Origin: an uncultured Bifidobacteriaceae bacterium | Lineage (GTDB): Bacteria; Verrucomicrobiota; Verrucomicrobiia; Limisphaerales; UBA11358 | Direction: 5' to 3' | DNA length: 64,000 nucleotides | NCBI GenBank assembly: GCA_964655855.1 | Contig: CAZZPE010000004.1 | Coordinates: 18,808-82,807, forward strand | Shown here: piece after piece, positions 15,831 to 62,890 of the stretch | How the letters are laid out: every line of letters begins with the position of its first letter | Numbering within the stretch: position 1 is the first letter of the stretch | The notes under the pieces: model-generated | Database searches by the model: none | The model's input: only the letters and a program-made list of their open reading frames with translations | Told to the model about the DNA's origin: nothing | Program-made: the position numbers and the translations under genes

Positions 15831-15903
15831 GGCATGGCGCGTCGCTCCGTGCGCGCCGTCGCTGCAATCGGACGGACGGCGGGCGGAGGACTGCCCGCCT
15901 ACC
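15831..15903. repeat. GTAG-type REP-like doublet (family B)
   Basis: GCATGGCGCGTCGCTCCGTGCGCGCC and GGCGGGCGGAGGACTGCCCGCCTACC; reverse-orientation relative of 41230-41308. Supplies the rsmI TAG. Confidence 0.85.
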
Positions 15904-33691: not shown

Positions 33692-33701
33692 CGCCGGAGG
33701 T

Positions 33702-33852
33702 TTTTAACGCAAAGACACGCCTGCCGCAACGAAGATGGAAGATGGAGAATGGAAGATCGCCGGAAAAAATGCGCGCCGGGTTTTGCCATTCTCCACCTTC
33801 CATCCTCTATTTTCGCTTGCTGGATTGCAGCGCGGGCGTCTTTGCGTTAAAA
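33702..33852. mobile_element. MITE-like nested element: 15-bp terminal inverted repeats enclosing an inverted heptamer doublet
   Basis: TTTTAACGCAAAGAC (33702-33716) and GTCTTTGCGTTAAAA (33838-33852) are perfect reverse complements. Internal GATGGAR-like array (33734-33760) and CCATCCT-like array (33786-33813). Confidence 0.6.
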
Positions 33853-34632
33853 ATGTGCGTCATGTTCGCCTCGCTGATTTTTGATTTGCTGAACGTCGGT
33901 TACCTGATCCACAACATCTGGCTGTGGCCAGTTGTCGCGTTTCTGGTCTGGATGTTCGTTGACGCGATCCGGCGGCGGGAATGGCTTTGGGCGATTTTTA
34001 TTTTGATCGGCTGGGGCATCTCGGCGATTTTGTATTTCTTCTTCGTCTATCGCGCCAGCGCGCCGTCGGTCACGCGCGGCTTCGAGCTGCCCGGCGCGCA
34101 GAGCCGCAAACGCATCAAGGAACTTCAGGCGCAAATCCATCACCTCGACAACGCCTATCACCATTTCCAGCTCGGCGACGTTTACTTCCAGCGCGGCAAA
34201 CTGGCCGAGGCCGAACAATGCTACCGCGCCGCGCTTCAGCGCGATGCCACCGACATTGACACCCGCGCGCATCTGGGCCAATGCCTCGTCCGCCTGAACC
34301 GTCCCGCCGAGGCGCGGCCGCTCCTCGAAAGCGTCATGAACGAGAAGCCCGAACACGATTACGGCCACACCATGATGGCGCTGGCCGAAACGCTCACCGC
34401 GCTCGGCGAGACCGACAACGCGATTCAATACTGGCAGCACATCACGCAAAACCATTCCTACCCGCGCGCCAAGGTTCAACTCGCCGAGCTTTACCTCGCC
34501 AAAAAACAGCCGGAACTGGCGCGGGCGGAATTGAAGGACATCGTCAGCGACGACCAGCACGCGCCCGCCTTCCAGCGCAAGCGCGACCGCGTCTGGGTCC
34601 GCCGCGCAAAAAGCCTGATGTCGCGGCTGTAG
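33853..34632 (+). CDS. Membrane-anchored TPR protein (N-terminal PLDc_N-like TM hairpin)
   Basis: WMFVDAIRRREWLWAIFIL TM motif, then TPRs (LGDVYFQRGKLAEAEQCYRAAL). Start 33853 or 33862. Confidence 0.8.
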   Translation: MCVMFASLIFDLLNVGYLIHNIWLWPVVAFLVWMFVDAIRRREWLWAIFILIGWGISAILYFFFVYRASAPSVTRGFELPGAQSRKRIKELQAQIHHLDNAYHHFQLGDVYFQRGKLAEAEQCYRAALQRDATDIDTRAHLGQCLVRLNRPAEARPLLESVMNEKPEHDYGHTMMALAETLTALGETDNAIQYWQHITQNHSYPRAKVQLAELYLAKKQPELARAELKDIVSDDQHAPAFQRKRDRVWVRRAKSLMSRL

Positions 34633-34682
34633 CAGCGCACGTGAGTTCGCTCCAATTTGAGCCGACTCACGTCGGCTGCTAC
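34629..34682. repeat. GTAG-type REP-like doublet (family A)
   Basis: GTAGCAGCGCACGTGAGTTCGCTC and GAGCCGACTCACGTCGGCTGCTAC; its TAG is the TPR gene stop. Confidence 0.88.
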
Positions 34683-34729
34683 AATTCATTTTGATTCGCG
34701 TTCCCGGCAAAATTCCCTATCCTTTGAGC

Positions 34730-36322
34730 GTGCCAAATCTCATCGCCATCGTCGGACGACCGAATGTCGGCAAGTCCGCATTGTTCAACCGCATCATCAA
34801 GAAGCGGATTGCAATTGTGCATGACCAGCCGGGCGTCACGCGCGACCGCGTCACCGCCGAGGCTGAGTGGGGCGGAAAATCCTTCACGCTGGTGGACACC
34901 GGCGGCATCGGCCTGTTGCGCCGCGAAAAATCCGACGACATCATCATCAAGGCCGCGCTCGAACAGGTGGAAATGGCGATTGAAGCCGCCAGCGCCATCA
35001 TCCTGGTCGTCAATGTGCAGGAAGGCGTCGTGCCGCTGGACCGCGAGGTGGCGCAACATCTCCACAAGAGCGGCAAGCCAATCCTGGTGGCGGTCAACAA
35101 GGTGGACACCGAACGCGCGGAAAAAGGCGCGGACGAATTTGCCGCGCTCGGCTTCGACAAGATTTTCCCCGTCAGCGCCATTCACGGCGAAGGCATCCAG
35201 AATCTGATGAACGCAGCGGTGGCCCTGTTGCCAGTCCAAAGTTCAAAGTCCGAAGTTCAAAGTCAAGAAGCTGCCGGCGATGACTCGGCTGATTCCGCAA
35301 TCCGCAATCCGCAATCCGCAATTTTGAAGCTGGCCATCGTCGGCCGGCCGAACGTCGGCAAGTCGTCCATCATCAACGCGCTCACGCAATCCAAGCGCGT
35401 CATCGTCTCGCCGATTCCCGGCACGACGCGCGACGCGATTGACGTGCCGTTCGAGGTCGAGGCCGACGGCATCCGGCAGAAATACATCCTGATTGACACC
35501 GCCGGGATGCGGAAGACGCGGCGCGTGGACGATTCGATCGAGTATTTCAGCGTGAAACGCGCCGAGGATTCCATCGAGCGCAGCGACATCACGGTGCTGG
35601 TGATTGACGCCGAGGCCGGCATCACCGAGCAGGACAAAAAGATCGCCGACGTGATCGTCGAAAGCCGCAAGGCGTGCATCATCGTCGTCAACAAATGGGA
35701 TTTGTTCGAGGCGGAGGTTCTCAAGGCGCGCGAGGATGAAATCGGGCGGCGCAACCGGAAGGAGCGCACCGAGGGCCAGGCAAAGCAACTGACCACGCTC
35801 GGCGAGTTCGCCGAGTGGGTGCAGCGGAAACTGTTTTTCCTCGATTACGCGCCGGTGATTTTCACGTCCGCCAAGTCCGGCTTTCATCTGGAGCGGTTGC
35901 TGGAGGCCATCCGCTATGTCGCCGCGCAGTTGCAGCAGAAAATCCCGACGGCGATTTTGAACCGCACCATCAACGACGCCGTCGAGCGCCGCCAGCCGAT
36001 CAGCGCGATGGGCCACCGGCTGAAATTTTTCTACGCGACGCAGGTGCGGCAGGCGCCGCCGACCTTTCTGCTGTTCGTCAACCGCGACGAATTGTTTTCC
36101 GACCAATACAAAAAGCATCTGGCGGGCGAGCTGCGCACGGCGTTCGGCTTCGAAGGCTGCCCGATCGTGCTGGTGCCAAAGGCGCGCCCGAAGACGATTG
36201 AGCCGGTGCGGAAATTCAAGCCGGAGCACAAAAAACAAACGGGAAAAGCGGGAAGGATTGAGGCCCATCGGAAGGCGCAGCACGAAAGATATTCCCGCGT
36301 TCGCGGAAAGAAATCGCAATGA
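34730..36322 (+). CDS. der: Ribosome biogenesis GTPase Der/EngA
   Basis: Two GRPNVGKS G1 motifs, DTGG/DTAG, NKVD/NKWD, KH-like C-terminal domain. GTG start inferred. Confidence 0.96.
   Translation: MPNLIAIVGRPNVGKSALFNRIIKKRIAIVHDQPGVTRDRVTAEAEWGGKSFTLVDTGGIGLLRREKSDDIIIKAALEQVEMAIEAASAIILVVNVQEGVVPLDREVAQHLHKSGKPILVAVNKVDTERAEKGADEFAALGFDKIFPVSAIHGEGIQNLMNAAVALLPVQSSKSEVQSQEAAGDDSADSAIRNPQSAILKLAIVGRPNVGKSSIINALTQSKRVIVSPIPGTTRDAIDVPFEVEADGIRQKYILIDTAGMRKTRRVDDSIEYFSVKRAEDSIERSDITVLVIDAEAGITEQDKKIADVIVESRKACIIVVNKWDLFEAEVLKAREDEIGRRNRKERTEGQAKQLTTLGEFAEWVQRKLFFLDYAPVIFTSAKSGFHLERLLEAIRYVAAQLQQKIPTAILNRTINDAVERRQPISAMGHRLKFFYATQVRQAPPTFLLFVNRDELFSDQYKKHLAGELRTAFGFEGCPIVLVPKARPKTIEPVRKFKPEHKKQTGKAGRIEAHRKAQHERYSRVRGKKSQ
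35234..35321. repeat. Two four-unit heptamer arrays in the Der GD1-GD2 linker
   Basis: GTCCAAA GTTCAAA GTCCGAA GTTCAAA (35234-35261) and TCCGCAA x4 (35294-35321). Confidence 0.9.
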
Positions 36323-39700: not shown

Positions 39701-39718
39701 AAATTGTCCAGCGACACG

Positions 39719-39755
39719 GGCCGGGGAATTTCGATTCCCCGGCCTGTTTTGTTTT
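39719..39755 (+). terminator. Rho-independent terminator after nrdJ
   Basis: GGCCGGGGAAT-TTCG-ATTCCCCGGCC 11-bp stem followed by TGTTTTGTTTT. Confidence 0.85.
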
Positions 39756-39798: not shown

Positions 39799-40479
39799 AT
39801 GAGCGACACAACCTTTCTCATGCGCGAGGATCCCTGGCGCATCTTCCGCATCATGTCCGAATTTGTGGAGTCGTTCCACACGATGTCGGAAATCGGACCG
39901 GCGGTGAGCATCTTCGGCTCCGCCCGCATGAAGCCGAACGACAAATATTACCGCGCCGCCACCGCCATCGCCAAGGGACTCGCTCGGCACAACCTCGCCG
40001 TCGTCACCGGCGGCGGCCCCGGCATCATGGAGGCGGCCAACAAGGGCGCGGCGCAGGCGGGCGGCAAATCCGTCGGCCTCAACATCGAGCTGCCGCGCGA
40101 GCAAACTGGCAACCGCTACGCCAACATCCCGCTTCACTTCCACTATTTTTTCGCGCGCAAAGTCTGCTTTGCCAAATACAGCCTCGGCTTCATTTACATG
40201 CCCGGCGGCTTCGGCACGCTCGACGAATTGTTTGAGATCATCACCCTCGTCCAGACCGAGCGCATCCCGCAGTTCCCGCTCGTGCTCTTCGGGCGCGACC
40301 ACTGGACCGGCCTGCTGCAATGGATGAAAAAGGAACTGGTGCAAAAAAACAAATTCATCAAGCCCGCCGACCTTGAGCTAGTAAAAGTCACCGACGATGT
40401 TGAGGAAGTTGTCGCCATCATCCGCGACTACGAACGCCATGTCGGCACGCCGCCCGCCCCGCCCAAGGCGTTTGCGTGA
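39799..40479 (+). CDS. LOG-family nucleotide phosphoribohydrolase (TIGR00730-like)
   Basis: GGGPGIMEAAN, FFARK, PGGFGTLDE. Confidence 0.92.
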   Translation: MSDTTFLMREDPWRIFRIMSEFVESFHTMSEIGPAVSIFGSARMKPNDKYYRAATAIAKGLARHNLAVVTGGGPGIMEAANKGAAQAGGKSVGLNIELPREQTGNRYANIPLHFHYFFARKVCFAKYSLGFIYMPGGFGTLDELFEIITLVQTERIPQFPLVLFGRDHWTGLLQWMKKELVQKNKFIKPADLELVKVTDDVEEVVAIIRDYERHVGTPPAPPKAFA

Positions 40480-40485
40480 CGAAAA

Positions 40486-42063
40486 ATGCGCCCGCTGATT
40501 CACGAAATCTCCACCGCGCACACGCCCGAATCGCTCGTCGGGCAATTGCGGATTGCGGGTTGTGGATTGCGGAATGTCGTTTTGCTTCGCACGTCGCAAT
40601 TTGATTCACCTTCGGCGCGCTACTCGTTTGTCGCTGCAAATCCATTCCTGACGTTCCGCTCCTTCGGCTCGCGTTGCGAGATAACTCCGCACTCCGCATT
40701 CCGCGCTCCGCACTTCGGAAATCCGTGGCATCTTCTCGGCAGCCTGATGTCGCGCTATGAGCTGCTGGACGAAATTGACCTGCCCTTTCCGCTCGGCGGC
40801 TGCTTTGGTTTCTGGGGCTACGACCTGAAAAACTTCACCGAACCGAAACTCCCGCGCCGCGCCGTCAACGATTTGGAATTGCCAGACTGCCACGCCGGTT
40901 TTTATGACAGTCTGGTCGTCTTCGACCATCAGCTCGGAAAAGTTTTCATCGTCTCAACCGGCTTGAACGCCGACGGCTCGCGCAGCGAAAAGCGGGCGAA
41001 CGAGCAAATGGAATTTTGGAACCTGTTGATTTCAGGAAAATTGCCACCGAGACACAGAGTCGCGAAGAAACATTCCCCGCTTCCGCGCCTCTGCGGCTCC
41101 GTGGCCCAGATCATCTCAAATCTGTCACGCGACGAATTTATTTCCAAGGTTCAGCGCGCCCAGCGATACATCCGCGCCGGCGACATTTACCAGGTCAACC
41201 TGTCGCAGCGGCTGACGGTGGATTTTTGTGGTAGGGCGGGCAGTCCCCTGCCCGCCGCCGGACGAACGCAGGCCCACGAACGGCGCGCACGGAGTGACGC
41301 GCCCTACCTTCTGGCAAATTCGGACGGCTGGGAATTGTTCCAAAAATTAACCGCCGTTTCCCCAGCTCCGTTTTCGGCATTTCTCGACTGCGGCGATTTT
41401 CAGATTGCATCGTCCTCGCCGGAACAATTTTTACGCATGAGTGGTTCGCAAATCGTCACACGTCCGATCAAGGGCACGCGCCCGCGCGACCCCGACCCGA
41501 CACGCGACGCGCAGCTCGCCTACGAACTCCAGACCAGCACGAAGGAACTCGCCGAGCTGGTGATGATCACCGATCTGCTGCGAAATGATTTGGGCAAGGG
41601 CTGCGAATTCGGCTCCGTGCAAACACCGGAAATCGCCAAGCTGGAAAAATTCGCGCAGGTGCAGCACCTCGTTTCCACCGTCGAGGGTCGCCTGCGGAAC
41701 GACGTGACGCATTTCACCTCGTTCGCGGCAGCTTTTCCCGGCGGCAGCATCACCGGCGCGCCGAAATACCGCGCGATGGAAATCATTGACGAACTGGAGC
41801 CGGTTTCGCGCGGACCTTACTGCGGCGCGATCGGCTTCCTCGGCTTCAACCGCGAGAGCCAGTTGAGCATCACCATCCGCGCAGCGATCTGCCAAGACGG
41901 CCTCGCGCATTTCAACGTTGGCGCGGGCATCGTGGCGGATTCCAATCCCGAGTCGGAATACGAGGAAACGCTGGCGAAGGCCGCCGGCTTTCTGGCGGCA
42001 TTGAGTAGCAGCCGACGTGAGGAGGCTCCGACTAAAATTCCATCGAGCGATTTTGAAGTTTGA
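40486..42063 (+). CDS. pabB: Aminodeoxychorismate synthase component I (PabB/TrpE family) with several repeat-derived inserts
   Basis: GDIYQVNLSQ, SSPEQFL, PIKGTRPR, FPGGSITGAPK, VGAGIVADS; pabC-like gene nearby. Confidence 0.85.
   Translation: MRPLIHEISTAHTPESLVGQLRIAGCGLRNVVLLRTSQFDSPSARYSFVAANPFLTFRSFGSRCEITPHSAFRAPHFGNPWHLLGSLMSRYELLDEIDLPFPLGGCFGFWGYDLKNFTEPKLPRRAVNDLELPDCHAGFYDSLVVFDHQLGKVFIVSTGLNADGSRSEKRANEQMEFWNLLISGKLPPRHRVAKKHSPLPRLCGSVAQIISNLSRDEFISKVQRAQRYIRAGDIYQVNLSQRLTVDFCGRAGSPLPAAGRTQAHERRARSDAPYLLANSDGWELFQKLTAVSPAPFSAFLDCGDFQIASSSPEQFLRMSGSQIVTRPIKGTRPRDPDPTRDAQLAYELQTSTKELAELVMITDLLRNDLGKGCEFGSVQTPEIAKLEKFAQVQHLVSTVEGRLRNDVTHFTSFAAAFPGGSITGAPKYRAMEIIDELEPVSRGPYCGAIGFLGFNRESQLSITIRAAICQDGLAHFNVGAGIVADSNPESEYEETLAKAAGFLAALSSSRREEAPTKIPSSDFEV
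40546..40573. repeat. Four-unit heptamer array (TTGCGGA) in pabB
   Basis: TTGCGGA TTGCGGG TTGTGGA TTGCGGA; reverse complement of the der TCCGCAA array. Confidence 0.85.
40685..40712. repeat. Four-unit heptamer array (YTCCGCA) in pabB
   Basis: CTCCGCA CTCCGCA TTCCGCG CTCCGCA; encodes TPHSAFRAPH. Confidence 0.85.
41043..41105. repeat. Octamer-type inverted repeat in pabB
   Basis: GCCACCGAGACACAGAG ... CTCTGCGGCTCCGTGGC, imperfect inverted arms. Confidence 0.7.
41230..41308. repeat. GTAG-type REP-like doublet (family B) in pabB
   Basis: GGTAGGGCGGGCAGTCCCCTGCCCGCC and GGCGCGCACGGAGTGACGCGCCCTACC. Confidence 0.9.
42005..42028. repeat. Single family-A REP-like unit in the pabB 3' end
   Basis: GTAGCAGCCGACGTGAGGAGGCTC. 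Confidence 0.75.
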
Positions 42064-42085: not shown

Positions 42086-43588
42086 CTATTTCACCTTTTC
42101 CACCACCAGCATTTCAATAGGCATGTTGGTCGGAACAAGTTCCAGCCCCAATTGTTTATGCAAAGCGTCTCCGAAGGCTTGTCTCATGGCATTAATGTTT
42201 GTGTTCCAAGATGGATTCAATTCCGGACGATGAAAGGAATAATCGTATTGGTTCGTGAGCCCGGTCTCATCAATAATTGGCAAATTCAAGGTATCTTCCA
42301 ATGAATTCTGCCATATCAAATCGCCTATGGTCCGATTGAAGTGAGCGTCTCCATCATCATGGCCGGCAGCCGCATTGGCGCTGGGTTTGAATGCAGGAGC
42401 CTCCAGGTTTGAAAGTTTGAGCAAAAGAACATTCCTTTGCCTCAATTCCTTTTTCCCCACAAAGCCGAATTTTCGCTTTATTTCTTGTGCCAGTGCTTCA
42501 GACGAACCTTTTGTAAGGCTGACGATGTAATCGTAGTTTTCCTGTGGCAATTTGGGAAGAATGGCCCGGGTCGGTTTGGAATCATAAGCATCGAAAATCA
42601 TTTGTTCGACTGACGTGTCGAATTCCAGCCTCTTGACATTTTGGATTCGTCCTTGGCCGTTGTTTTGGAAATAGGTTGCCACGGTGCTGCGACGCTGAGA
42701 AAATATCGTCGGTCGAATTTCCACCATTGGCGGCGCCGCTTCAAGCACTTTGGCCATGTTATCCGTTTGAACCTGCCATTGATAAGCGTAATGTTTCGTT
42801 AATTCCTTGATGGTTATTGTCGCTGTCCCCACAGCAATCAACGCGGCTAACCCGATAACAGTCGTCGTTCTTGCCTTTGTCCACGCCATAATTTTCAATG
42901 TTCCTTTGATGAGGGTTAAGATTGAAGCCGAGGCCGCCGCGCCTTTGGCCAGCGCCACGGCGGTCACGGTTTTTGCCAGCGCCGGGGGCGCAGCTTGAAT
43001 GGAATTGACGGAAATCTTTTCCGCAATGGTTGCCGCCGTCGAACTCACGCCGCGTTTGGCAAAATAACGGCTCAACTTCTCCAAAGCGCGGCTCACGCGC
43101 TTGCGCGCGGGGTCTTCGCCCATTCCGAGAAAGCTTCCGACTTCCGCCAGGCTTTTGTTTTCAAAGAAGCGCAGCAGCACGGCCTGCCGGTCTTTCTCGC
43201 CGAGCGTCGCCAGCGCCTCGTCCAGCACCGGCGACATTTGGTTCCAGACTTCATCAGCCGCCGGGGTTTGAAATTCAGATTGCATTTGCACCTCCAGTTC
43301 GCGGCGCCACCGCTTCGCCCGCTCGCGGATTTGCGCCAGCGCGGCAAACCGCGTCGTCCGGAAAAGCCAGCCGGTCAAAATGGTTTTGTCCGAAATCCGC
43401 CCGGCCTTTTGTGCAAGAATGATGAACACCGCCTGTGTGATTTCCTCCGCCAGATGCGGGTCGCGCACCTGCCGCAGCGCCGCCGCATAGACAAAACCGA
43501 TCCGCCGCGAAACCAGTTCCGCAAACGCCGTTTCGGAGTTGTTCGCCACGTAGTCGCGCAATAGCGCCATGTCGTCCACTGCCTGCAT
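42086..43588 (-). CDS. ECF sigma-70 factor fused to a TM helix and a C-terminal TIGR03435-like domain
   Basis: Sigma regions 2 and 4 (AEEITQAVFIIL, LLRFFENKSLAEVG), TM (VIGLAALIAVGTATI), C-terminal IIDETGL..YD..LGLELVPT.MPIEMLVVEK pattern. Confidence 0.82.
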   Translation of the reverse strand: MQAVDDMALLRDYVANNSETAFAELVSRRIGFVYAAALRQVRDPHLAEEITQAVFIILAQKAGRISDKTILTGWLFRTTRFAALAQIRERAKRWRRELEVQMQSEFQTPAADEVWNQMSPVLDEALATLGEKDRQAVLLRFFENKSLAEVGSFLGMGEDPARKRVSRALEKLSRYFAKRGVSSTAATIAEKISVNSIQAAPPALAKTVTAVALAKGAAASASILTLIKGTLKIMAWTKARTTTVIGLAALIAVGTATITIKELTKHYAYQWQVQTDNMAKVLEAAPPMVEIRPTIFSQRRSTVATYFQNNGQGRIQNVKRLEFDTSVEQMIFDAYDSKPTRAILPKLPQENYDYIVSLTKGSSEALAQEIKRKFGFVGKKELRQRNVLLLKLSNLEAPAFKPSANAAAGHDDGDAHFNRTIGDLIWQNSLEDTLNLPIIDETGLTNQYDYSFHRPELNPSWNTNINAMRQAFGDALHKQLGLELVPTNMPIEMLVVEKVK

Positions 43589-43644
43589 TCACCTATAAAT
43601 GCCGGTTTTTGGCGAAACCGGACAATCTTTTTGCAAAATAATTC

Positions 43645-43722
43645 AACGCAAAGACGCAAAGGCGCAAAGCCGAAGAGGTAAAAACATGACATTGCGCCTT
43701 TGCGTCTTTGTGTCTTTGCGTT
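43645..43722. repeat. Octamer inverted array (CGCAAAGA ... TCTTTGCG)
   Basis: AACGCAAAGACGCAAAGGCGCAAAG ... CTTTGCGTCTTTGTGTCTTTGCGTT; same termini as 33702-33852. Confidence 0.85.
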
Positions 43723-43732
43723 AAAAAAAGGC

Positions 43733-44572
43733 GTGCAGGTTTTTCTTAATGGAAATTTTGTTCCCGAGAAACAGGCGGTCGTTCCCGCAAGCGACCGCGG
43801 GTTTCTGCTGGGCGACGGATTGTTTGAAACGATGCGCGTCGCCGGTGGAACGCCATTCCGCTTCGCGCAGCATCTGGAACGGCTGGCGCGCGGCGCGGAA
43901 TTTCTGAAAATCATTTGCCCGTTCACGCCGGGTGAACTGGAAAAATTCGCCGGGCAGCTCATCGGGCGGAATCAAATGCCCGAAGCCATCCTTCGCCTGA
44001 CGCTGACGCGCGGGCCGGGCGGACGCGGCTACACGCCGAACGGCAAAGGCAGTCCGACGGTCGTGATGACCTTGCATCCCGCGCCATCGTCGGACAATTC
44101 CGTCAAATGGAGCCTGGTCACATCATCGTTTCGGATTCCAGCCGCCGATCCGCTGGCTTCGTTCAAAACCACGAGCAAGATTTTGCACGTCATGGCGCGC
44201 GCCGAGGCCGCGGAACGGGGCGCGGACGAGGCGCTGCTCCCCAACACAAACGGCGAAGTGGCCGAGACCGCCGGCGGCAATTTGTTCTGGGTCCATGACG
44301 ACACCATTTGCACCCCGCCGGCCGGGAGCGGCGCGCTACCGGGCGTCACACGGGCGGTCGTCCTCGAAATCTGCCGGACGCTCGGACTGAAAACGGACGT
44401 GCGCGCCACCAAGCCGGAGGCGTTGCGGAATTCAGGCGGCCTTTTCATCACGCAAAGCGCGCTGGGCATCGTGGCGGTGACGGCGTTCGACGGCGCGCCG
44501 GTCGCGCCGTCGCCACTCGTGGACCGGATCGCGCGTGCTTACCATCAAATGCTGGTCCGGCCAGTGGTTTAG
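43733..44572 (+). CDS. pabC: Class IV aminotransferase, 4-amino-4-deoxychorismate lyase-like
   Basis: DRGFLLGDGLFETMR, GEVAETAGGNLF, LPGVTR; near pabB. GTG start inferred. Confidence 0.75.
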   Translation: MQVFLNGNFVPEKQAVVPASDRGFLLGDGLFETMRVAGGTPFRFAQHLERLARGAEFLKIICPFTPGELEKFAGQLIGRNQMPEAILRLTLTRGPGGRGYTPNGKGSPTVVMTLHPAPSSDNSVKWSLVTSSFRIPAADPLASFKTTSKILHVMARAEAAERGADEALLPNTNGEVAETAGGNLFWVHDDTICTPPAGSGALPGVTRAVVLEICRTLGLKTDVRATKPEALRNSGGLFITQSALGIVAVTAFDGAPVAPSPLVDRIARAYHQMLVRPVV

Positions 44573-49277: not shown

Positions 49278-50552
49278 TCACTCAAACCGCACGGGCTGCC
49301 CGGTGGTGGCCAGCGCCGCGTGCCAGAGCGGGCCGTCCGGATCCACGCGCTTCTGCCGTTTTGTCAGCATTCTGACCGGCACATGGATGAACTGGTCGTG
49401 GAGCAGCCCGATCATCAGGCCGGTTTTTCCGGCCATCGCGGCATGGACGGCGTTGCGGGCGTATTGGTCGCACAGGATGGCATCCTCCGAATCGGCGCGG
49501 ACGCTCCGGATGATGTAGCTTGGCTCCAGATAACGCATCACCATGGGAATCTTTTCCGCGCGGAAATAAGACTCGATTTTTTCACGGAGAAACGGCCCGA
49601 TGTCCTTGAGCCTGACGTTTCCCGAGGCGTCGCGTTCCTCGCCGTTGTTCTCCAGCAGATCCTGCCCGGCGCCTTCCGCCACCACGATGACCGCGTGCGC
49701 CCGCTTCAACGTGCGCTTCTTCAGCGCGTTAAGAAATCCGCCGGGGCCTTCCAGCTTGAACGGGATTTCCGGAATCAGGCAGAAATTCACCTCCTGGCTG
49801 GACACCGTGGCTTCCGTGGCGATGAATCCGGCATGCCGGCCCATCAGCTTGACCAGGGCGATGCCGTTCCGGACGCTGTGGACTTCCGTGTGGGCGCAGA
49901 CAATGACCCGGGCCGCTTCCTGCACCGCGGTCTGGTAGCCGAAAGTGCGCGAAACGTAAAGCACATCGTTGTCCACGGTCTTGGGAATGCCCACGACTGC
50001 CAGGGCGTGTCCGCGTCTTTGCGCCTCGCGGAAAAGTTCATAGCCGCCGCGCTGCGTGCCGTCGCCGCCGACGACCAGCAGGATGCTGACGCCGCGTTTG
50101 ATGAGATTATCCACCGCGACCCGGATGTCCACCGGACCGCGCGAAGTGCCCAGCACCGTGCCGCCTTCCTGGTGAATGTCGTCCACAAAATCGGCCGTGA
50201 GCTGGAGCGGTTCCAGTCCGTGCGAGGGGTCAAGCCCCTGATAGCCGTCGCGGAAGCCCAGCACCTGTTTCACGCCGTAAGTGTGGTGCAGTTCCAGAAA
50301 GGCGGAGCGGATGACGGTGTTCAGGCCGGGACAAAGCCCGCCGCAGGTCACGATGCCAACCCGGGTTTTTCTGGAATCAAAAAAAAGTTTCGCGCGCGGT
50401 CCGGCTAGCTCGAATAGAAAATCCTCCGGCGGCCGGACGCCGGGTTTCCGGATGATGTTCAGCGGCAGCCGCGCGTCATCGCCGACATGGTGCGGAATCG
50501 GCGACGCGAAGCGGGCCTTGCCAAGCCGGGTGATGTTTGCGGCATTATTCAC
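49278..50552 (-). CDS. pfkA: ATP-dependent 6-phosphofructokinase (group II type)
   Basis: TCGGLCPGLN, GGTVLGTSRG, GGDGT (Gly indicates ATP), PKTVDND, MGRHAG. Confidence 0.9.
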   Translation of the reverse strand: MNNAANITRLGKARFASPIPHHVGDDARLPLNIIRKPGVRPPEDFLFELAGPRAKLFFDSRKTRVGIVTCGGLCPGLNTVIRSAFLELHHTYGVKQVLGFRDGYQGLDPSHGLEPLQLTADFVDDIHQEGGTVLGTSRGPVDIRVAVDNLIKRGVSILLVVGGDGTQRGGYELFREAQRRGHALAVVGIPKTVDNDVLYVSRTFGYQTAVQEAARVIVCAHTEVHSVRNGIALVKLMGRHAGFIATEATVSSQEVNFCLIPEIPFKLEGPGGFLNALKKRTLKRAHAVIVVAEGAGQDLLENNGEERDASGNVRLKDIGPFLREKIESYFRAEKIPMVMRYLEPSYIIRSVRADSEDAILCDQYARNAVHAAMAGKTGLMIGLLHDQFIHVPVRMLTKRQKRVDPDGPLWHAALATTGQPVRFE

Positions 50553-53034
50553 GCACGACCGCTTTCAACTGGGCCTTGAACGCCTCCACAATTTTCCCGT
50601 GCACCGCGCCCACTTCGGCGTCGGTCAGTGTTTTTTCCGGCGAGCGGTAGGTGAACGCGTAAGCCAGGCTCTTCTGCCCTTCCGGCACGTGCTTGCCGTG
50701 AAACACGTCAAACAGCTCCACTGCCTCAAGATTCGCGGGCCTGGTTTTTTTGACGGCCTGCAAAACCGCCTCGTGCGTCGTCGCCTCCGGCACCAGCATC
50801 GCCACGTCGCGGCGGATGGACGGGAATTGCGGCAGCGGCTTGAACGACCGGGCCGGATTGCGCCGCGCGAGCAGTTGATCCAGATTCAGCTCGGCGAGAA
50901 AAACCGCGCCGCGCAAATCATATTTTTTCACCAGCGCGGGTGAAAGCCGGCCCATTTCGCCGAGCGGCAATTTGCCCCCCAGCGCAACCGTCGCGGATTC
51001 CAGAAACATCGCCGTGCTTTCGGCCCGCCGGGCGAACGCCACTCCGCGAACACCGAAATGTTCGAGAAATTCCTCGACCACCCCTTTCAGGTCAAACGCG
51101 TCAAACGTGGCGTTGCGCTCCTCGCCGCTCCAGAAGGGCAAGGCGCGCTGGCCGGTGATGGCGACGGCCACGCGGCGTTCTTCCTTCACCGCGCCGTTTT
51201 GCAAACTGAACACGCGCCCGATTTCGAACAGCGCCACGTCGCCATTTTTCCGGCTGACATTGTGCCGCAGCGAATGAATCAATCCCGGCAGCAAACTCGG
51301 CCGGAGCACGTCCATGTCGCTGCTCAACGGATTGGCCAACATCACGGATTCCGCATTCCGCATTCCGAACTCCGCGCTGGAAATGAGCGTCTGCCCCTGC
51401 GCCTCGTTCAAGCCGAGTCCGGTGAGGATGCGGCGCGCCTCGGCAATCTGGTCATAAACTGAATCAAAGGCGTTCGAGCCGATCGCGCCGCGCGGCGGCG
51501 TGGCGGGGATTTTCTCCACGCCGTAAAGCCGTTCGACATCCTCGATCAAATCCACCGCGCGCTTCAAATCCACCCGCCACGACGGAATCTTGAACGTGCA
51601 GACGCCGGGCGACTGCTCGGTCACCGCCAGCCCCAGCTTGGTGAGAAACGAAACCTGATCCGAATGTGAAATGCCGACGCCCAGCAAATCCTTCGACTTT
51701 GAAAAATGCAGGGTGATCTGCTTCGGCTCGGCGGGCTTCGGATAAACGTCCACCACGCCTTCGGCCAGCCGGCCACCGGCGGTTTCCAAAATCAACTGCG
51801 CCGCGCGCCGGCTCGCCCAGTCGCAAATATTCACGTCCGCACCGCGCTCGTAGCGGTAGCTGGCGTCGGTGCGCAGGCCCAGCAGCTTGCTCGTGCGGCG
51901 GATGTTCGTCGGCTTGAAATACGCGCTCTCGATGAGCACGTCCACGGTCGAGTTGTTGATCTCCGTGTTCGCGCCGCCCATGACGCCGGCAAGGGCGATG
52001 CCTTTGGTTTCGTCCGCGATCAAAAGCATTTCGCTCGTGAGCGTGCGCTCCTGATTGTCGAGCGTCTTGAATTTTTCCCAGGCGGCGGCGCGACGGACGA
52101 CGATCGTTGGAATGTGGTAGCCGACGTCAGTCGGCTCTGATTTGATTTGAGCGGACTCACGTCCGCTGCCACGAGAGATCAAATGATAATCAAACGCGTG
52201 GAGCGGCTGGCCGATTTCCAGCATGACGTAATTCGTCACGTCCACGACGTTGCTGATGCTGCGGATGCCGACTTTTTCCAGCGCCGAGCGCAGCCAGTCG
52301 GGGCTTGGCCCGATTTTCACGCCTTTGATGACGCGCGCGGTGTAACGCGGACAAAGCTCCGAGTCTTCAATTTTTACCGAAACCAAGTCAGTCGTTTTTC
52401 CGCCGATGGAAACGAGTTTGATTTCTGGAACTTTCAATGCATTCCCGGTGACCGCCGCGATTTCACGCGCGATGCCGATGACGCTGTTCAAATCCGGCCG
52501 GTTCGGCGTGACTTCCAAATCATAGACCACGTCGCCGCCGCTGCGGCCGAGATATTCGCCAAACGGCTGACCGACCTTCGCGTCTTCGCGCAAAATGAGC
52601 AGACCATCTTCCTTTTTGTGGCCGATCGCTTCGGGATCAATGAGCAATTCTTCATGCGAGCACATCATGCCGTGCGATTCCACGCCGCGGATTTTGCCGA
52701 CCTTGATGGTGAACGGTTCCTTGTCGCCGGCCTTCAACGGCAGCGACGCGCCGGGCAGGATGAGCGGCACTTTGTCGCCGGCCTTGAAATTCTGCGCGCC
52801 GCAGACGATCTGCCGTTCGCCCGTGCCGTCGTTGACGCGGCAGACGGAGAGTTTGTCGGCGTTGGGGTGCTTGTCGCGCGTGACGACCTGCGCCACGACG
52901 ATGCCGTCGAACGCGGCGGCGATCTTCTGCACGCCCTCGACTTCGAGGCCGAGCATAGTGAGCCGCTCGGTCAACTCCTCGGGCGACCAGTTGAAATCAA
53001 CGTATTGTTTGAGCCAGTTGAGAGTTACTTTCAT
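50545..53034 (-). CDS. pheT: Phenylalanine-tRNA ligase beta subunit
   Basis: MKVTLNWL, HPNADKL, TPNRPD, GQPLHAFD, DLIEDVERL, FDX-ACB C-terminus. Confidence 0.97.
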   Translation of the reverse strand: MKVTLNWLKQYVDFNWSPEELTERLTMLGLEVEGVQKIAAAFDGIVVAQVVTRDKHPNADKLSVCRVNDGTGERQIVCGAQNFKAGDKVPLILPGASLPLKAGDKEPFTIKVGKIRGVESHGMMCSHEELLIDPEAIGHKKEDGLLILREDAKVGQPFGEYLGRSGGDVVYDLEVTPNRPDLNSVIGIAREIAAVTGNALKVPEIKLVSIGGKTTDLVSVKIEDSELCPRYTARVIKGVKIGPSPDWLRSALEKVGIRSISNVVDVTNYVMLEIGQPLHAFDYHLISRGSGRESAQIKSEPTDVGYHIPTIVVRRAAAWEKFKTLDNQERTLTSEMLLIADETKGIALAGVMGGANTEINNSTVDVLIESAYFKPTNIRRTSKLLGLRTDASYRYERGADVNICDWASRRAAQLILETAGGRLAEGVVDVYPKPAEPKQITLHFSKSKDLLGVGISHSDQVSFLTKLGLAVTEQSPGVCTFKIPSWRVDLKRAVDLIEDVERLYGVEKIPATPPRGAIGSNAFDSVYDQIAEARRILTGLGLNEAQGQTLISSAEFGMRNAESVMLANPLSSDMDVLRPSLLPGLIHSLRHNVSRKNGDVALFEIGRVFSLQNGAVKEERRVAVAITGQRALPFWSGEERNATFDAFDLKGVVEEFLEHFGVRGVAFARRAESTAMFLESATVALGGKLPLGEMGRLSPALVKKYDLRGAVFLAELNLDQLLARRNPARSFKPLPQFPSIRRDVAMLVPEATTHEAVLQAVKKTRPANLEAVELFDVFHGKHVPEGQKSLAYAFTYRSPEKTLTDAEVGAVHGKIVEAFKAQLKAVVRE
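51349..51376. repeat. Four-unit heptamer array (YTCCGCA) in pheT
   Basis: TTCCGCA TTCCGCA TTCCGAA CTCCGCG; encodes AEFGMRNAE. Confidence 0.85.
52114..52172. repeat. Family-A REP-like doublet in pheT
   Basis: GTGGTAGCCGACGTCAGTCGGCTC and GAGCGGACTCACGTCCGCTGCCAC. Confidence 0.9.
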
Positions 53035-55691: not shown

Positions 55692-58166
55692 TCAAAATCT
55701 TTGCAGCCGGAAAAACAAATCGCCGCTGGTCAGGGGCAGCGTGATGATCTGCAGCCCGTTGGTGAGAACGGGCGGCGGCGGCAGCGTCACCAGCGTCCAG
55801 CTGTTGGTGGACAGCAGGTTGGTGTTGGATTCAAGGCGGTATTCGGGCAGATAGGCCGGCTGGGTCAGAGTCACGTTCGTCTTGCCCGGACCTGAAACAA
55901 TGGTCAATGCCGGCGGGACTTCCAGCAGCAGGATTTTGGCGAGGAAGGCGTCGCTGGTCCCGTTGAGCGCGGCGTGCAGCGCGTTGTTCGTCGGAAAATT
56001 GGACGAGAGCGTCTGGCCGACCACGTAGGCATCGCCGGCCGGATCCAGCGCCAGACCGTAGCCGAAATCGTCGTTCGCACCGCCGAGACAGACCGAATAG
56101 AGCAGCGCCGAGGCATCGGAGTTGAATGCCGTGACAAAAACGTCGTTGCCACCGGAATTGGTCCCGGCCAGATAGGTTGCCGTGTTTGTCGTCGGGAAAT
56201 CGGTCGAGGTGGCGGCTCCGACGACAAATGCCTCACCCGCCGGATCCACCGCCACGCCGTAGCCGACATCACCGGCAAGCCCGCCGAAAACCACGGCGTA
56301 AACGATGTTGGTTCCTGTCGGTCCGAGCTTCACCAGAAAGGCGTTGGTCGTGAGAATCGAGCCGCTTAAATTGTTGGTCACCCCGCTGAACAAGCCGGGG
56401 ACATTCGTTGTGGTGTCCGGAAAATTCGGCGAAATCGCCCCGCCGGTCACGTAGGCATTGCCCGCGGAATCCGCCGCGACAGCGTAGCCGAGGTCATCGT
56501 CCATCCCGCCCAGATAAGTGGAATAAACCAGCGCAAGGTTCGTGGCGGAGGGCTGCGCGAATTTTGCAACGAAAACATTGTAGCTGAGGGTCACGTTGGT
56601 GATGCCGCCCAAAACACCCTGCCACGCGTTGGTCGTCGGGAAATTGGTCGAGTCGGTGAAACCGGTCAGATAAACGGCACCGGAACCATCCACGGCAATG
56701 CCCTCGGCCGCATCCACGTTGGTGCCGCCGAAGTAGGTTGAATACAACAAATTCGTGCCACCCGGCCCGATCTTGGTCAAAAATCCGTTAAAGAATCCTG
56801 CCAGCCGGTTCAACAAGACATTGGTCGTGCCCGCGAGTTTGTAAGCCAGCGGATGGACGGCAGGAAAATTGGTGGAACTGGTGTAACCGGTGACATACGC
56901 ATCACCCGCCGAATCCAGCGCGATGCCTAAGCCTTCATCTCCGGTGCCTGCAATTCCAACAGTGCCGCTGCCGCCAAGGTAGGTCGAATAAACCAAGTTC
57001 GATCCGCTGGAATTCAACTCTGTGACAAAAGCGTTGCCGCTGTAGTAAGCATAGCCATGATAAGTATAATAGGCATGTCCGAGAATCTTGGGATAAAGCG
57101 CATTGGTTGTCGGAAAATCCGGAGAAGTCGTGTAACCGGTCAGAAAGACATCGCCCGCTTTGTCAACGGCCAGACCGGAAGCCAGATCATCCTGACTGCC
57201 ACCGAGATAGGTGTAATAAACCAAATTGGAACCGTTATTGCTGAATTTTGCAACAAATGCGTCGCCGTTAATGGAACCGCCAGCGAAGTTCGTCTGAAAC
57301 GCACCAACCGTCGCCAGTTTTGCCGAGAGTGTCTCGCCCACGACATAAATAAAACCGTTTGTGTCCACAGCCACCGCCGCAGCCCCATCATCAGCGCTTC
57401 CACCAAAATAAGTCGAATAACTCAAAATCGGGTCAATCACCAGCGGCAGGCTGTGGTCATACTCACCAACGGTGAACGCGGCGGTGTGCGCATCCAAAAT
57501 TCTGTAGCCGCCGCTGATTTCCCGGCGCGCGCCATTGGCTGTCTGGTAAATGACCGGCTTCGGCTGGCGGATTTCACTGTCGCCCAGGTTCAAAACCAGT
57601 TCGCCGGCATGACCGACGGAAACATTGTCCGCGCCGTCAAAACGGATGGCGATGACGCTGGGATCCGCTCCGGGCGCGACGGTGAAATCATATTCAAGCT
57701 GCCGCTGGTTGCCATAATAGGTCAGATTGACGCCGGGATAAAGCCGGCCGACATCCACCCGAGCAAAGGTTGCCACGCCGGTCTGCCAGTGCGCCGGTTG
57801 ATTGCCGATGAGGTAGTTGATTTTGCCGGACAACTCCTCCGCACCGGAAATTTGGGCGCGGTCGTTTGCGCCCGCAAATTCCATCCGCACCGATCGCATG
57901 GAAAAAGCGCCCGGCGCGGTTGTCTTGCGAAGAACGAATTGCGCCGCGCCGGGCGAGATCAGAAATTCAGAATCGCGTCCGCGCGCGATGAATTGCGCCG
58001 GGGAATCCACCTGCCCCTGGTTGGTCTCAAAATAGAGCGGCAGACCGGCCGGCACCACCGCCGTTTGTGCCACGGCAACGGCGGCAAACAGTCCCAGCCA
58101 GCCCGCACCGCAGAGACCCGTGAGGACTGGCTTCACAAACCGGATTTTTTTCATCCAAGTCGTCAT
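55692..58166 (-). CDS. Secreted SBBP-repeat (beta-propeller) surface protein with C-terminal tail domain
   Basis: Signal peptide, LPLYFETNQGQ..QLEYDF N-terminal domain, about seven YSTYLGGS.DD.G..IAVD..G..YVTG.T.S..FP repeats, ends YRLESNTNLL..W...FFRLQRF. Confidence 0.85.
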   Translation of the reverse strand: MTTWMKKIRFVKPVLTGLCGAGWLGLFAAVAVAQTAVVPAGLPLYFETNQGQVDSPAQFIARGRDSEFLISPGAAQFVLRKTTAPGAFSMRSVRMEFAGANDRAQISGAEELSGKINYLIGNQPAHWQTGVATFARVDVGRLYPGVNLTYYGNQRQLEYDFTVAPGADPSVIAIRFDGADNVSVGHAGELVLNLGDSEIRQPKPVIYQTANGARREISGGYRILDAHTAAFTVGEYDHSLPLVIDPILSYSTYFGGSADDGAAAVAVDTNGFIYVVGETLSAKLATVGAFQTNFAGGSINGDAFVAKFSNNGSNLVYYTYLGGSQDDLASGLAVDKAGDVFLTGYTTSPDFPTTNALYPKILGHAYYTYHGYAYYSGNAFVTELNSSGSNLVYSTYLGGSGTVGIAGTGDEGLGIALDSAGDAYVTGYTSSTNFPAVHPLAYKLAGTTNVLLNRLAGFFNGFLTKIGPGGTNLLYSTYFGGTNVDAAEGIAVDGSGAVYLTGFTDSTNFPTTNAWQGVLGGITNVTLSYNVFVAKFAQPSATNLALVYSTYLGGMDDDLGYAVAADSAGNAYVTGGAISPNFPDTTTNVPGLFSGVTNNLSGSILTTNAFLVKLGPTGTNIVYAVVFGGLAGDVGYGVAVDPAGEAFVVGAATSTDFPTTNTATYLAGTNSGGNDVFVTAFNSDASALLYSVCLGGANDDFGYGLALDPAGDAYVVGQTLSSNFPTNNALHAALNGTSDAFLAKILLLEVPPALTIVSGPGKTNVTLTQPAYLPEYRLESNTNLLSTNSWTLVTLPPPPVLTNGLQIITLPLTSGDLFFRLQRF

Positions 58167-58167
58167 C

Positions 58168-62166: not shown

Positions 62167-62251
62167 ACGAATAGAATCGCCGCTGGCATTTCGGCGGCAA
62201 GACAAAGTTGTTTTTCTTGTTACCAAATTATTCGCCGCGCGATTTCAGGCT

Positions 62252-62317
62252 TCATCCGTCCCACTCGCCGGTCTGGAGATACGGCTTGAGCTTTTCCTTG
62301 AGCGTTTCGCGACCGCG
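62252..62317 (-). repeat. Duplicated 3' end of the ECF sigma gene (distal direct repeat)
   Basis: 62261-62311 is identical to 62900-62950 (51 bp), extending to 57 bp with one mismatch; reads RGRETLKEKLKPYLQTGEWDG-stop. Confidence 0.92.
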
Positions 62318-62845: not shown

Positions 62846-62890
62846 GGTTTGAAACTACGCCCTGTTATTGTCCGGCGCAATCGGGAAATT

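Follow-up and report, generated by a model that had tools for sequence, protein, structure and literature searches.

What allows the pabB gene of this bacterium to carry five repeat features and still be read as one open frame? A first-pass annotation of the 64,000-nucleotide stretch of DNA analysed here (the window) had noted two heptamer arrays, an octamer palindrome, a family-B doublet and a family-A unit inside the gene, and had counted them as five insertions from four families. All five features were found in place and far above chance, in a gene with a likely partner nearby:

40486–42063, + strand: pabB (aminodeoxychorismate synthase component I), intact ORF, 525 aa
40545–40573, + strand: site-1 heptamer array, ATTGCGG x4.1 (Tandem Repeats Finder, 81% matches)
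40684–40714, + strand: site-2 heptamer array, ACTCCGC x4.4 (Tandem Repeats Finder, 83% matches)
41043–41105, + strand: imperfect palindrome with octamer-built arms in the linker that joins the N-terminal domain to the catalytic one, read as LPPRHRVAKKHSPLPRLCGSV
41230–41308, + strand: family-B GTAG REP doublet (site 3), two hairpins closed by GGTAGGGCG/CGCCCTACC
42005–42033, + strand: degenerate family-A GTAG REP unit, starting the C-terminal tail SSSRREEAPTKIPSSDFEV; the tail runs to the stop codon (42061–42063)
43700–44572, + strand: pabC-like gene (Aminotran_4, class IV aminotransferase fold), 1.6 kb downstream of pabB

The repeats are translated in frame at loops, the inter-domain linker and the C-terminal tail, and pabB has the highest load among the window genes examined. 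Four families is a fair count, with the reservation that what unites the heptamer "family" is its period and copy number and not a shared sequence. The word insertion fits the B doublet, which is a clean indel, and the site-1 array and linker palindrome, which are clade-specific gains, but it applies only partly to the site-2 array and the A unit. A search of the whole window found no Rfam families above threshold.

Identity of pabB and selection on its core

The pabB product matches Pfam Chorismate_bind (PF00425, 2.2e-83, in two stretches) and Anth_synt_I_N (PF04715, 3e-24), and its closest solved structure is E. coli PabB (1k0e, 1.5e-81). The SPE, PIKGT, HLVST, GGSITGAPK and E..E motifs are all present, in line with the intact chorismate-binding motifs of the first-pass annotation. 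They are invariant across 78 orthologs, and the same invariance holds for E313, K329, H394, E491 and E494. Lys329 is the lysine of PIKGT, within TRPIKGT at residues 325–331, and corresponds to E. coli K274, which we take to tell PabB from TrpE. Both domains, this lysine with the catalytic motifs, and a pabC partner are thus present, as expected of a PabB; in the relative L084, pabC directly adjoins pabB.

Alignment with eleven orthologs (dS 0.3–0.97) gave a dN/dS of 0.12–0.18 for the core, versus roughly 0.5–1 for the repeat-derived codons, supporting the first-pass suggestion that the enzyme core is kept by purifying selection despite the repeats. One intact frame was found at 165 of 165 orthologous pabB loci examined. 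Metatranscriptome contigs match the pabB region at 99% identity or more (40200–40714, 41280–41850 and smaller pieces), though they are shallow and could reflect DNA carry-over. Taken together, the core dN/dS, invariant motifs, intact loci, nearby pabC and RNA contigs argue that pabB is functional and not decaying. The frame does stay open through its repeats, but this is less striking than it sounds, because the elements are stop-free in 4–6 of their six reading frames.

The family-B doublet at site 3

With its flanks, the B doublet forms a clean insertion of 90 nt (30 aa), which cuts the Chorismate_bind domain in two. E. coli and the close relatives L082 and L084 lack it, and the root state at this site is empty. 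The doublet itself encodes 26–30 aa. Its arms (41230–41257 and 41281–41308) are an inverted repeat, both arms fold, and the whole has a predicted energy of −44.2 kcal/mol (z = −2.5). The GTAG tag lies in GGTAGGG at 41230, with the complement at 41308, and a search of the flanks gave no convincing target-site duplication. The doublet is also repetitive well beyond pabB: it reaches 10–30 times the baseline depth in metagenome runs, and one B arm recurs among the genomes of Verrucomicrobiota and Kiritimatiellae, in at least 119 stretches. A second full copy lies elsewhere in the window, as do relatives of the A unit and of the linker palindrome:

1352–1421, no strand assigned: family-A head-to-head doublet that makes up the C-terminal tail encoded by an outer-membrane efflux (OEP) gene
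15831–15903, − strand: second full family-B doublet, intergenic and in inverse orientation, flanked by a GH3 gene and a methylase gene
33701–33853: perfect relative of the linker palindrome
34629–34682: sister family-A doublet, intergenic
43642–43725, no strand assigned: near-perfect intergenic octamer palindrome, (ACGCAAAG)x3 ... (CTTTGCGT)x3.8, with TTCAAC/GTTAAA ends
52114–52172: sister family-A doublet inside pheT

Site 3 is empty in E. coli and in 106 of the 143 scored orthologs, and elsewhere it holds at least seven unrelated families; collapsed doublet remnants are seen in L030, L032 and L034. Parsimony gives at least 30 changes at this site, a figure that leans upward because pabB is a recombination mosaic, so that the seven or more unrelated families are the safe lower bound.

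Heptamer arrays at sites 1 and 2

The site-1 array, read as QLRIAGCGLR, lies in the loop before the LLRT strand. Most orthologs have an array-free EQLRGESGIVL here, which is the ancestral state, and the array replaces this loop with a net gain of 12 nt. L082 and L084 carry a perfect x4 copy of the array, and the window copy is 94% complementary to another array at 35292–35323.

Site 2, read as TPHSAFRAPH, falls in an N-terminal-domain loop that is variable and has a counterpart in E. coli PabB. The loop is 11 aa long in the window and roughly 10 aa, and non-repetitive, in outgroup orthologs. A period-7 signal runs through it across 163 orthologs with dozens of differing units, so that L082 and L084, for example, have a CCAGACG array in place of the ACTCCGC array; site-2 arrays have 10% G on the coding strand. 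Site 2 is an ancestral loop occupied by ever-changing heptamer arrays across the clade, without net gain in length. The first-pass annotation had named alignment to ancestral sequence as evidence against insertion, and that objection holds for where the site-2 loop lies, but not for the B site with its empty counterparts in relatives.

Heptamer arrays of at least three copies number six in the window and none in 50 Markov shuffles. Across loci there are 98 in 253 kb of pabB versus 18 in 744 kb of flanks, which makes them about 16 times denser in the gene (98 of 116 lie inside pabB). Their copy number is narrowly distributed (median 4.4; 10th to 90th percentile 3.7–4.95). The unit is not a multiple of three, and a one-unit slip would therefore shift the frame; the contigs of four runs, which hide rare variants, show no array indels, and the frame is kept at all 165 loci. 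Between L046 and L053 the length changes by exactly 21 nt, which is three heptamer units and leaves the frame intact. This one clean case, together with array length modes at 7 and 14 aa, makes the 21-nt step a route of length change and not the rule: the idea that arrays change mostly by such steps failed, as length differences between nearest neighbours fall smoothly through 3, 6 and 9 nt. We also rejected a reading in which the arrays of sites 1 and 2 co-evolve as the two arms of a single element, since permuted pairings score equally (P = 0.9 and 0.43). The two arrays are perfectly complementary in three lineages (L001, L003 and L148), and the only link left between them is at the level of family (GCGGANT vs ANTCCGC).

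The linker palindrome and the C-terminal tail

The linker element folds as an imperfect hairpin of 63 nt, with an 8-nt period in its arms (CCGAGACA CAGAGTCG ...), and it is common to the window, L082 and L084. Its predicted fold (−28.3 kcal/mol, z = −4.45) was equalled by none of 200 shuffles, and the intergenic palindrome at 43642–43725 is of the same class (−42.3 kcal/mol, z = −7.7). The 1k0e alignment breaks at this element, and the linker is 38 aa long in the window versus 28–31 aa in the least loaded orthologs. Many element families occupy the linker across orthologs, and nearly every ortholog has a structured element there (median z −3.5, versus −0.26 in controls), with 67% of linkers folding at z < −2 versus 4% of control segments. 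The hairpin is kept with co-varying arms in 15 orthologs; double-sided changes number 15, versus 7.2 in shuffles, and none of 500 shuffles reaches 15.

At the other end of the gene, 42005–42028 differs from the family-A consensus GTRGCAGCSGACRTNAGTCSGCTC by two mismatches, with GTAG at 42005–42008. The family-A pattern has seven matches in the window, including three dimers, where none is expected. The pabB unit has lost its hairpin (z −1.3) and has a broken 3´ arm, in contrast to other A copies, which form perfect hairpins. Of 122 orthologs, 15 carry this unit, with the broken arm identical each time, and the A tail is missing in L084 and in the L081/L085 haplotype. The pabB A unit is an old, inherited fossil that supplies the C-terminal tail. 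Families A and B both have a GTAG end, a G+C-rich stem-loop, and dispersed copies and dimers. A candidate common insertion target, AATT, proved uninformative, being frequent throughout the gene (14 sites, about 9.5 per kb).

Where pabB and its neighbors accept repeats

Among 152 distinct orthologs, insertions of at least 5 aa occur only after residues 22–29, 69, 188–204, 246 and 302–304 of the window PabB (WIN) and at the C-terminus, and none occurs within residues 305–505. At least seven different element families are found at these same few permissive sites. The first-pass idea that the gene is a natural test of tolerance is sound, and the orthologs already supply the map. The five sites are probably surface exposed, judging from breaks in the 1k0e alignment and from the indel map. 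An AlphaFold2 model from a 78-sequence alignment places all inserts in coil, but with a mean pLDDT of 44.5 it is unusable and carries no weight; the available homologues are too alike.

In this respect pabB does not stand alone in the window, as in-frame repeats are found in pheT, der, ymdB and the OEP gene too. Heptamer arrays also occur in the der linker, pheT and ymdB, and the inter-domain linker of der has the same pattern as that of pabB.

Independent assemblies and mosaicism

The sequence and its repeat junctions were reproduced by the independent assemblies L081 (ENA) and L085 (JGI) and by contigs of the DNA runs X1 and X4. L081 and L085 have the same sequence as the window through sites 1–3, and their haplotype differs from it only in the last 300 nt; every repeat junction is spanned by overlapping unitigs from two DNA runs. 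Given this agreement, the repeats are not an assembly artefact. The gene is also a mosaic, the window PabB (WIN) being nearest P0004 over residues 78–185 and nearest P0002 over residues 278–400.

Discussion

We propose, with a probability of about 80%, that a functional pabB sits in a repeat-loaded genome, and that its repeats reflect survival at permissive sites, near-neutral drift, turnover and recombination. The host would be a wetland Verrucomicrobia subdivision-3 (Limisphaerales-like) bacterium whose genome carries GTAG-tagged REP hairpins and doublets, palindromes with tandem octamers or heptamers as arms, and free-standing arrays of some four heptamers. Such repeats would land or arise at many places. 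In pabB, only frame-keeping, stop-free events in structurally permissive places would survive, namely in two N-terminal loops, the inter-domain linker, one catalytic-domain loop and the C-terminus. Once fixed, they would be translated as added or substituted loop residues and drift near-neutrally. Arrays could turn over by slippage and homogenisation, including frame-keeping steps of three units (21 nt), doublets could decay via internal deletion, and homologous recombination among related lineages could shuffle the loaded segments. What we observe directly is that the elements are present, that the gene is intact with its core under selection, and that there are hot spots, polymorphism and mosaicism; movement of the GTAG REPs, in this model, would be by RAYT-type transposition. 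Two results count against neutrality, the 16-fold array density in pabB and the covariation of the linker arms, and to account for them we assume persistence at permissive sites and correction between arms.

Several other explanations can be weighed against this one. A repeat-driven chimeric contig, with an in-frame arrangement that is unreal, might be suspected from the way public-run unitigs break and depth spikes at the repeats. We give this practically no credence: overlapping unitigs of two DNA runs cross every junction, L081 and L085 are identical to the window through sites 1–3, and orthologs from about 160 other assemblies have the same kind of architecture. The relaxed selection that the first-pass annotation offered as an alternative, under which a decaying or redundant pabB would accumulate repeats, draws on the five features that give the gene its top load. 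It is contradicted by the low core dN/dS, the invariant catalytic residues, the 165 intact loci and the detected transcripts (from the same shallow contigs, with possible DNA carry-over), and housekeeping genes such as pheT and der bear repeats as well, making decay extremely unlikely. Could the segments instead be ancestral protein sequence that merely resembles repeats, with nothing inserted? Sites 1, 2 and the linker match loops present in E. coli PabB, the site-2 loop is no longer than those of outgroups, and the A tail and linker palindrome are inherited across many orthologs. On the other hand, the B doublet is a 90-nt indel with an empty root state, the same DNA families occur between genes and in other genes, site 1 is array-free in most orthologs, and about zero matches are expected by chance. 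The empty sites and extragenic copies refute ancestry as the whole explanation, which is very unlikely; all that survives of it concerns where the site-2 loop lies, and not what its sequence is.

Co-option is unlikely, if less so. Here selection would keep the hairpins and arrays in loops and at domain boundaries, for instance as pauses in translation that aid co-translational folding, as structural signals in mRNA or DNA, or as switches of pabB expression that are prone to slippage. The structured linker in nearly every ortholog, the arm covariation, the persistence of site-2 heptamer arrays across the clade while the unit changes, the array enrichment in pabB over its flanks and the similar der linker all point this way. 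Yet unrelated families occupy each site with presence/absence polymorphism (site 3 is mostly empty), and outgroups manage with minimal linkers and loops that hold no element. Hairpins also decay, as the imperfect window palindrome and broken A unit illustrate, and all loci are in frame with no length variants in contigs. The arm covariation, in turn, could come from template-switch correction or from separate insertions of different subfamilies. A broader proposal, which we hold tentatively and consider rather improbable, is that heptamer and octamer arrays, often as hairpins, are, in this verrucomicrobial order, a maintained feature of loops and inter-domain linkers in housekeeping genes (pabB site 2 and linker, der linker, pheT, ymdB), through a dedicated copying or correction mechanism or through RNA- or DNA-level selection such as inter-domain translational pausing. 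The unit would then be free to change, while period, about four copies, frame and palindrome-arm complementarity would be kept.

The elements can be compared with known systems. Intragenic GTAG REPs are mostly dimers encoding 20–30 aa, and the verrucomicrobium Opitutus terrae has the largest number of them; they also occur at ORF ends, and one study found same-site insertion only for Xanthomonas recB (Di Nocera et al., 2013, PMC3733652, which also mentions the Rickettsia palindromic elements). Families A and B resemble them in starting with GTAG, in being short G+C-rich stem-loops with head-to-head dimers and many copies, in being translated (the 26–30 aa of the B doublet compare with the published 20–30 aa), and, for the pabB A tail, in lying at an ORF end. 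This likeness is one of features; the published consensuses are GTAG-17 to GTAG-20. In contrast to that paper, several element classes occur here in one gene, and many families at the same sites in orthologs.

RPE-1 and other palindromic elements of Rickettsia, as reportedly described by Ogata and colleagues in 2000, lie in frame in housekeeping genes where the fold and function of the protein can accommodate them, and these genes are said still to yield their products. The pabB elements share the in-frame palindromic insertion into a housekeeping gene, a likeness in behaviour only. The sequences are probably unrelated, the hosts are free-living wetland Verrucomicrobia versus obligate intracellular Alphaproteobacteria, and the pabB elements are 30–90 bp and include tandem-array types, against a reported 100–150 bp for RPE-1.

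For the arrays, the nearest parallels are the heptameric GGGNATC SSRs of Xanthomonas and Nostoc (Rehm et al., 2015, PMC4692102) and the cyanobacterial STRR heptamers. In common with these are the 7-nt unit, the preference for about four units, some inverted array pairs, genome-wide scatter and strong over-representation. Unlike GGGNATC SSRs, the units here show extreme diversity, most lack G-tracts (ACTCCGC, ATTGCGG and CCAGACG have none), and many are translated inside essential genes. A G-quadruplex-type SSR would share the unit length and number, but the G3–4 tract and mostly intergenic location of that type are not seen. Bacterial MITEs also enter coding regions, as for Coxiella QMITEs (PMC5896051; reviewed in PMC10969869), and are likewise small, non-autonomous and palindromic with the ability to add peptide segments; for the present elements, however, we identified no IS terminal inverted repeats, target-site duplication or parent IS, and the arms are tandem octamers or heptamers. 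Finally, tandem units that are not a multiple of three inside an ORF recall phase-variable contingency loci, from which these tracts differ in being short and impure, in lying in a housekeeping gene, in being in frame at all 165 loci and in showing no length variants in contigs, where rare variants would be hidden.

In-frame selfish repeats are already known from Rickettsia and Opitutus terrae, and are visible here in unusual detail; the in-frame persistence of translated heptamer arrays is the fresher part of the finding. The pabB orthologs form a natural insertion-tolerance map of a chorismate-utilising enzyme, in which more than 150 lineages have independently tried peptides of 5 to 58 residues. 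Only about six positions accept inserts, none of them in the catalytic C-terminal 200 residues, and such a map could be useful in enzyme engineering, for example in choosing sites for loop-grafting or tagging. The results also bear on how proteins evolve together with selfish DNA. Colonisation of genes by in-frame REPs, known in Rickettsia and Opitutus, is extended to wetland and soil Verrucomicrobia that are abundant and uncultured, and a poorly studied class, translated heptamer arrays of about four units, is brought to view. In practice, the elements inflate variation in protein length, and their copies fragment metagenome assemblies. Annotation and domain calls made by homology can also go astray because of them, as in the split Pfam Chorismate_bind match of this pabB.

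pabB probably remains a functional gene

The features of pabB and its immediate surroundings are as follows.

40486-42063, + strand: pabB, ORF with a 525-aa product
40545-40573: heptamer array of the site-1 loop, ATTGCGG x4.1 (Tandem Repeats Finder)
40684-40714: heptamer array of the site-2 loop, ACTCCGC x4.4 (Tandem Repeats Finder)
41043-41105: octamer palindrome whose arms, periodic at 8 nt, form an imperfect hairpin (-28.3 kcal/mol, z -4.45)
41230-41308: family-B doublet (site 3), two G+C-rich hairpins closed by GGTAGGGCG/CGCCCTACC, fold -44.2 kcal/mol
42005-42028: family-A unit, family-A consensus with two mismatches
42086-43588, strand opposite to pabB: ECF-sigma/DUF3738 fusion gene, between pabB and the pabC-like gene
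43700-44572, + strand: pabC-like gene, near pabB

The five repeats that the first-pass annotation placed in pabB are real, as documented by Tandem Repeats Finder, folds, consensus matches, shuffles and independent assemblies. Heptamer arrays of at least three copies number six in the window and zero in fifty shuffles, and the family-A consensus has seven matches in the window against none expected. The 3´ arm of the pabB unit is broken (z -1.3). Intergenic relatives of the octamer palindrome, near-perfect in form, lie at 43642-43725 and inside 33701-33853, and a further family-B doublet is intergenic (15831-15903). Families A and B both bear the GTAG tag, which marks one of two REP super-families (Di Nocera et al., 2013; PMC3733652). 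All repeat junctions of pabB were recovered in independent assemblies and in unitigs from two DNA runs.

The encoded protein has a TrpE/PabB N-terminal domain (Pfam, 3e-24) and a chorismate-binding domain (2.2e-83) whose match is split into two stretches. Among solved structures, the best match is E. coli PabB (1k0e, 1.5e-81), with the alignment interrupted precisely at residues 162-211 and 249-278 of the window protein. The PabB-type PIKGT lysine (K329) is present together with the SPE, HLVST, GGSITGAPK and E..E motifs, all without variation across 78 orthologs. Core codons have a dN/dS of 0.12-0.18 against eleven orthologs (dS 0.3-0.97), compared with roughly 0.5-1 for repeat-derived codons, where the alignment often pairs non-homologous elements, and a single unbroken frame was found in 165 of the 165 orthologous loci fetched. 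The ortholog comparison that had been proposed as a check thus supports purifying selection maintained despite the repeats, and refutes the relaxed selection offered as its alternative. Two wetland metatranscriptomes contain contigs at least 99% identical over 40200-40714, 41280-41850 and smaller pieces, the first stretch crossing the junction with the preceding gene and both heptamer arrays; this support is shallow and could include DNA carry-over. To all appearances, the window pabB is a working gene.

A LOG-like gene precedes pabB with a gap of 7 nt, and a strong terminator-like hairpin upstream (39716-39747) suggests that the two form a single transcription unit. Uncultured Verrucomicrobia subdivision 3 (Limisphaerales) of peat, wetland and soil are the source of the homologues and related loci. 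In one of these loci, L084, the sigma gene is missing and pabB and pabC adjoin; L082 has a longer sigma gene at this place and L081 a different minus-strand gene. The pabB C-terminal tail varies in step with the intervening gene across these three loci.

Inserted and ancestral segments

The first-pass interpretation is partly supported, in that 'insertion' applies to three of its five features. At site 3, the B doublet is a clean 90-nt indel, which neither the close relatives (L082, L084) nor E. coli have. The site is empty in 106 of 143 scored orthologs, with an empty root state inferred, and where occupied holds at least seven unrelated families at one spot, among them the B doublet, a GGTGGGGCGAG...CTCGCCCCACC doublet with its collapsed remnants, an octamer palindrome of the ACCAAGAC type and a GGAGTTCA...TGAACTCC element. 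At site 1, most orthologs have an EQLRGESGIVL loop without an array; GCGGANT-type arrays, in both orientations, were gained by a subclade, and three orthologs carry a REP instead. The linker between the N-terminal and catalytic domains measures 28-31 aa in the orthologs with the lightest load and reaches 85 aa at most. Its contents include heptamer and octamer palindromes (the latter of several subfamilies), B doublets, single arrays and long LTPALS...GEGRGEG elements. Folds with z < -2 are seen in two thirds of the linkers; among control segments taken from the catalytic half, the share is 4%.

The remaining two features are of a different kind. The site-2 loop is about 10 aa and non-periodic in outgroup orthologs, and in a large in-group almost always contains a heptamer array (period-7 identity 0.45 versus about 0.25 at other periods), built from dozens of distinct units with a strongly C-rich, G-poor coding strand. 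Length modes are 14 and 7 aa, and the 11-aa window version amounts to no net insertion. The family-A C-terminal tail is an old inherited copy, since the 15 of 122 orthologs that have it share the identical broken arm.

Turnover and recombination

The site-2 arrays of the window and L082 are unlike, though their flanks are about 92% identical; between two other loci, L046 and L053, the difference is exactly three units, or 21 nt, and in L125 and L140 units are homogenised inside each array. Nearest-neighbour length differences are for the most part small multiples of 3, and doublets degrade to halves or single hairpins with the frame kept. The linker-palindrome arms co-vary in 15 orthologs, with 93% of cells paired and 15 double-sided changes compared with 7.2 +/- 1.9 in shuffles (0 of 500 reach 15). 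This fits inter-arm correction, separate subfamily insertions or selection on the hairpin.

By sequence comparison, pabB is also a recombination mosaic. The ortholog closest to the window is P0004 over residues 78-185 and P0002, which has the B doublet in common, over residues 278-400. One recombinant haplotype, recovered independently in L081 and in L085, matches the window exactly over about 1,200 nt, parts from it only beyond about position 41700 and ends in a different tail. Because of this mosaic structure, the parsimony count of at least 30 gains at site 3 is inflated, and the safe lower bound is the number of unrelated families.

Where pabB accepts insertions

Among 152 distinct orthologs, insertions of at least 5 aa occur only after window residues 22-29, 69, 188-204, 246 and 302-304 and at the C-terminus, with none within residues 305-505. 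The window fills all major hot spots apart from 302-304. This sixth, unfilled spot is in the catalytic domain, where L082 and L083 carry an 18-nt mini-hairpin insertion, GGGACGCGGCACTGCCGC (GTRHCR), at the place matching window position 41397; similar inserts of 5-6 aa are found in 18 orthologs. Given that the repeat elements are free of stops in 4-6 of six frames, insertion is filtered mainly by position and by the need for a length divisible by 3. The best explanation is that selfish or neutral repeats are filtered by frame and by the structurally permissive sites of pabB. The orthologs provide a natural insertion tolerance map.

Relation to known repeats

The Rickettsia RPEs are the classic case of in-frame palindromic repeats. 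Intragenic GTAG REPs are most numerous in the verrucomicrobium Opitutus terrae, mostly as dimers encoding 20-30 aa (PMC3733652). With both of these already described, the A and B elements of pabB are of known type, namely intragenic GTAG REPs. The heptameric SSRs of Xanthomonas and Nostoc prefer four units, occasionally form inverted pairs, are built on one common G-tract unit and stay out of coding regions; the authors of that study remark that heptamer repeats have otherwise hardly been studied (PMC4692102). In contrast to these repeats, the pabB-type arrays are translated and have diverse units. In a limited literature search, we found no description of translated arrays of diverse units kept at fixed loops of housekeeping genes.

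Repeats elsewhere in the window

Other genes with in-gene repeats are:

19-1431: OEP (outer-membrane efflux protein) gene, family-A head-to-head doublet at its end (1352-1421)
19788-20594, - strand: YmdB-like phosphoesterase gene, one heptamer array
34691-36322: der (engA), two heptamer arrays
50545-53034, - strand: pheT, two repeats

pabB is the extreme case rather than the only one, with a heptamer-array density about 16 times that of flanking DNA across 164 loci. In pheT, a family-A doublet (52114-52172) lies in frame in the B3_4 domain, which is 193 aa against a 174-position profile; this phenylalanyl-tRNA synthetase beta-subunit gene also has an ATTCCGC x4 array at 51348-51375, in a catalytic-like domain. 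The der arrays, (AGTCCAA/AGTTCAA) at 35233-35264 and a perfect (TCCGCAA)x4.1 at 35294-35322, are in frame in the linker between the GTPase domains, which holds 37 arrays in 81 orthologs, period 7 throughout and often as inverted pairs. The YmdB-like coding region contains ACTTTGG x4.6 (92% matches, 20253-20284). In the OEP gene, the doublet forms the final ~26 codons ahead of the stop, a REP serving as C-terminal tail as in pabB.

A 150-nt composite palindrome (33701-33853; -70.5 kcal/mol, z -7.1), flanked by an HhH-GPD gene and a TPR gene, has octamer-type outer arms (TTTTTAACGCAAAGAC...) and inner arms of (GAAGATG)x4 and its complement, which shows that one element can combine octamer ends and heptamer arrays.

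The family-B arm is present in at least 119 stretches from other Verrucomicrobiota and Kiritimatiellae genomes. Its exact form, GTAGGGCGGGCAG-N4-CTGCCCGCC, occurs in many Verrucomicrobiota orders (subdivision 3, Udaeobacter/Chthoniobacterales) as well as rumen Kiritimatiellae (L245-L324), which makes this REP family either ancient or horizontally spread. Over the B doublet, metagenome depth increases 10-30 fold; unitig depth at 41194-41335 climbs to 855 in run X1 and to 4432 in run X4, starting from about 27 and about 267, respectively. The pabB repeats break up short-read metagenome assemblies, and breakpoints in the two runs fall at 40714, 41230/41258 and 41280/41308.

Two longer repeats were also observed. 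A 67-nt direct repeat (62251-62317 and 62890-62956; 93% identical, copies 639 nt apart) includes a 12-nt tandem, CTTGAGCGTTTC, in each copy. Three 117-nt direct repeats in 55992-56534 (62-72% identity, spacing 201 and 225 nt) sit inside a long minus-strand ORF, 55692-58568, and probably code for repeated protein domains.
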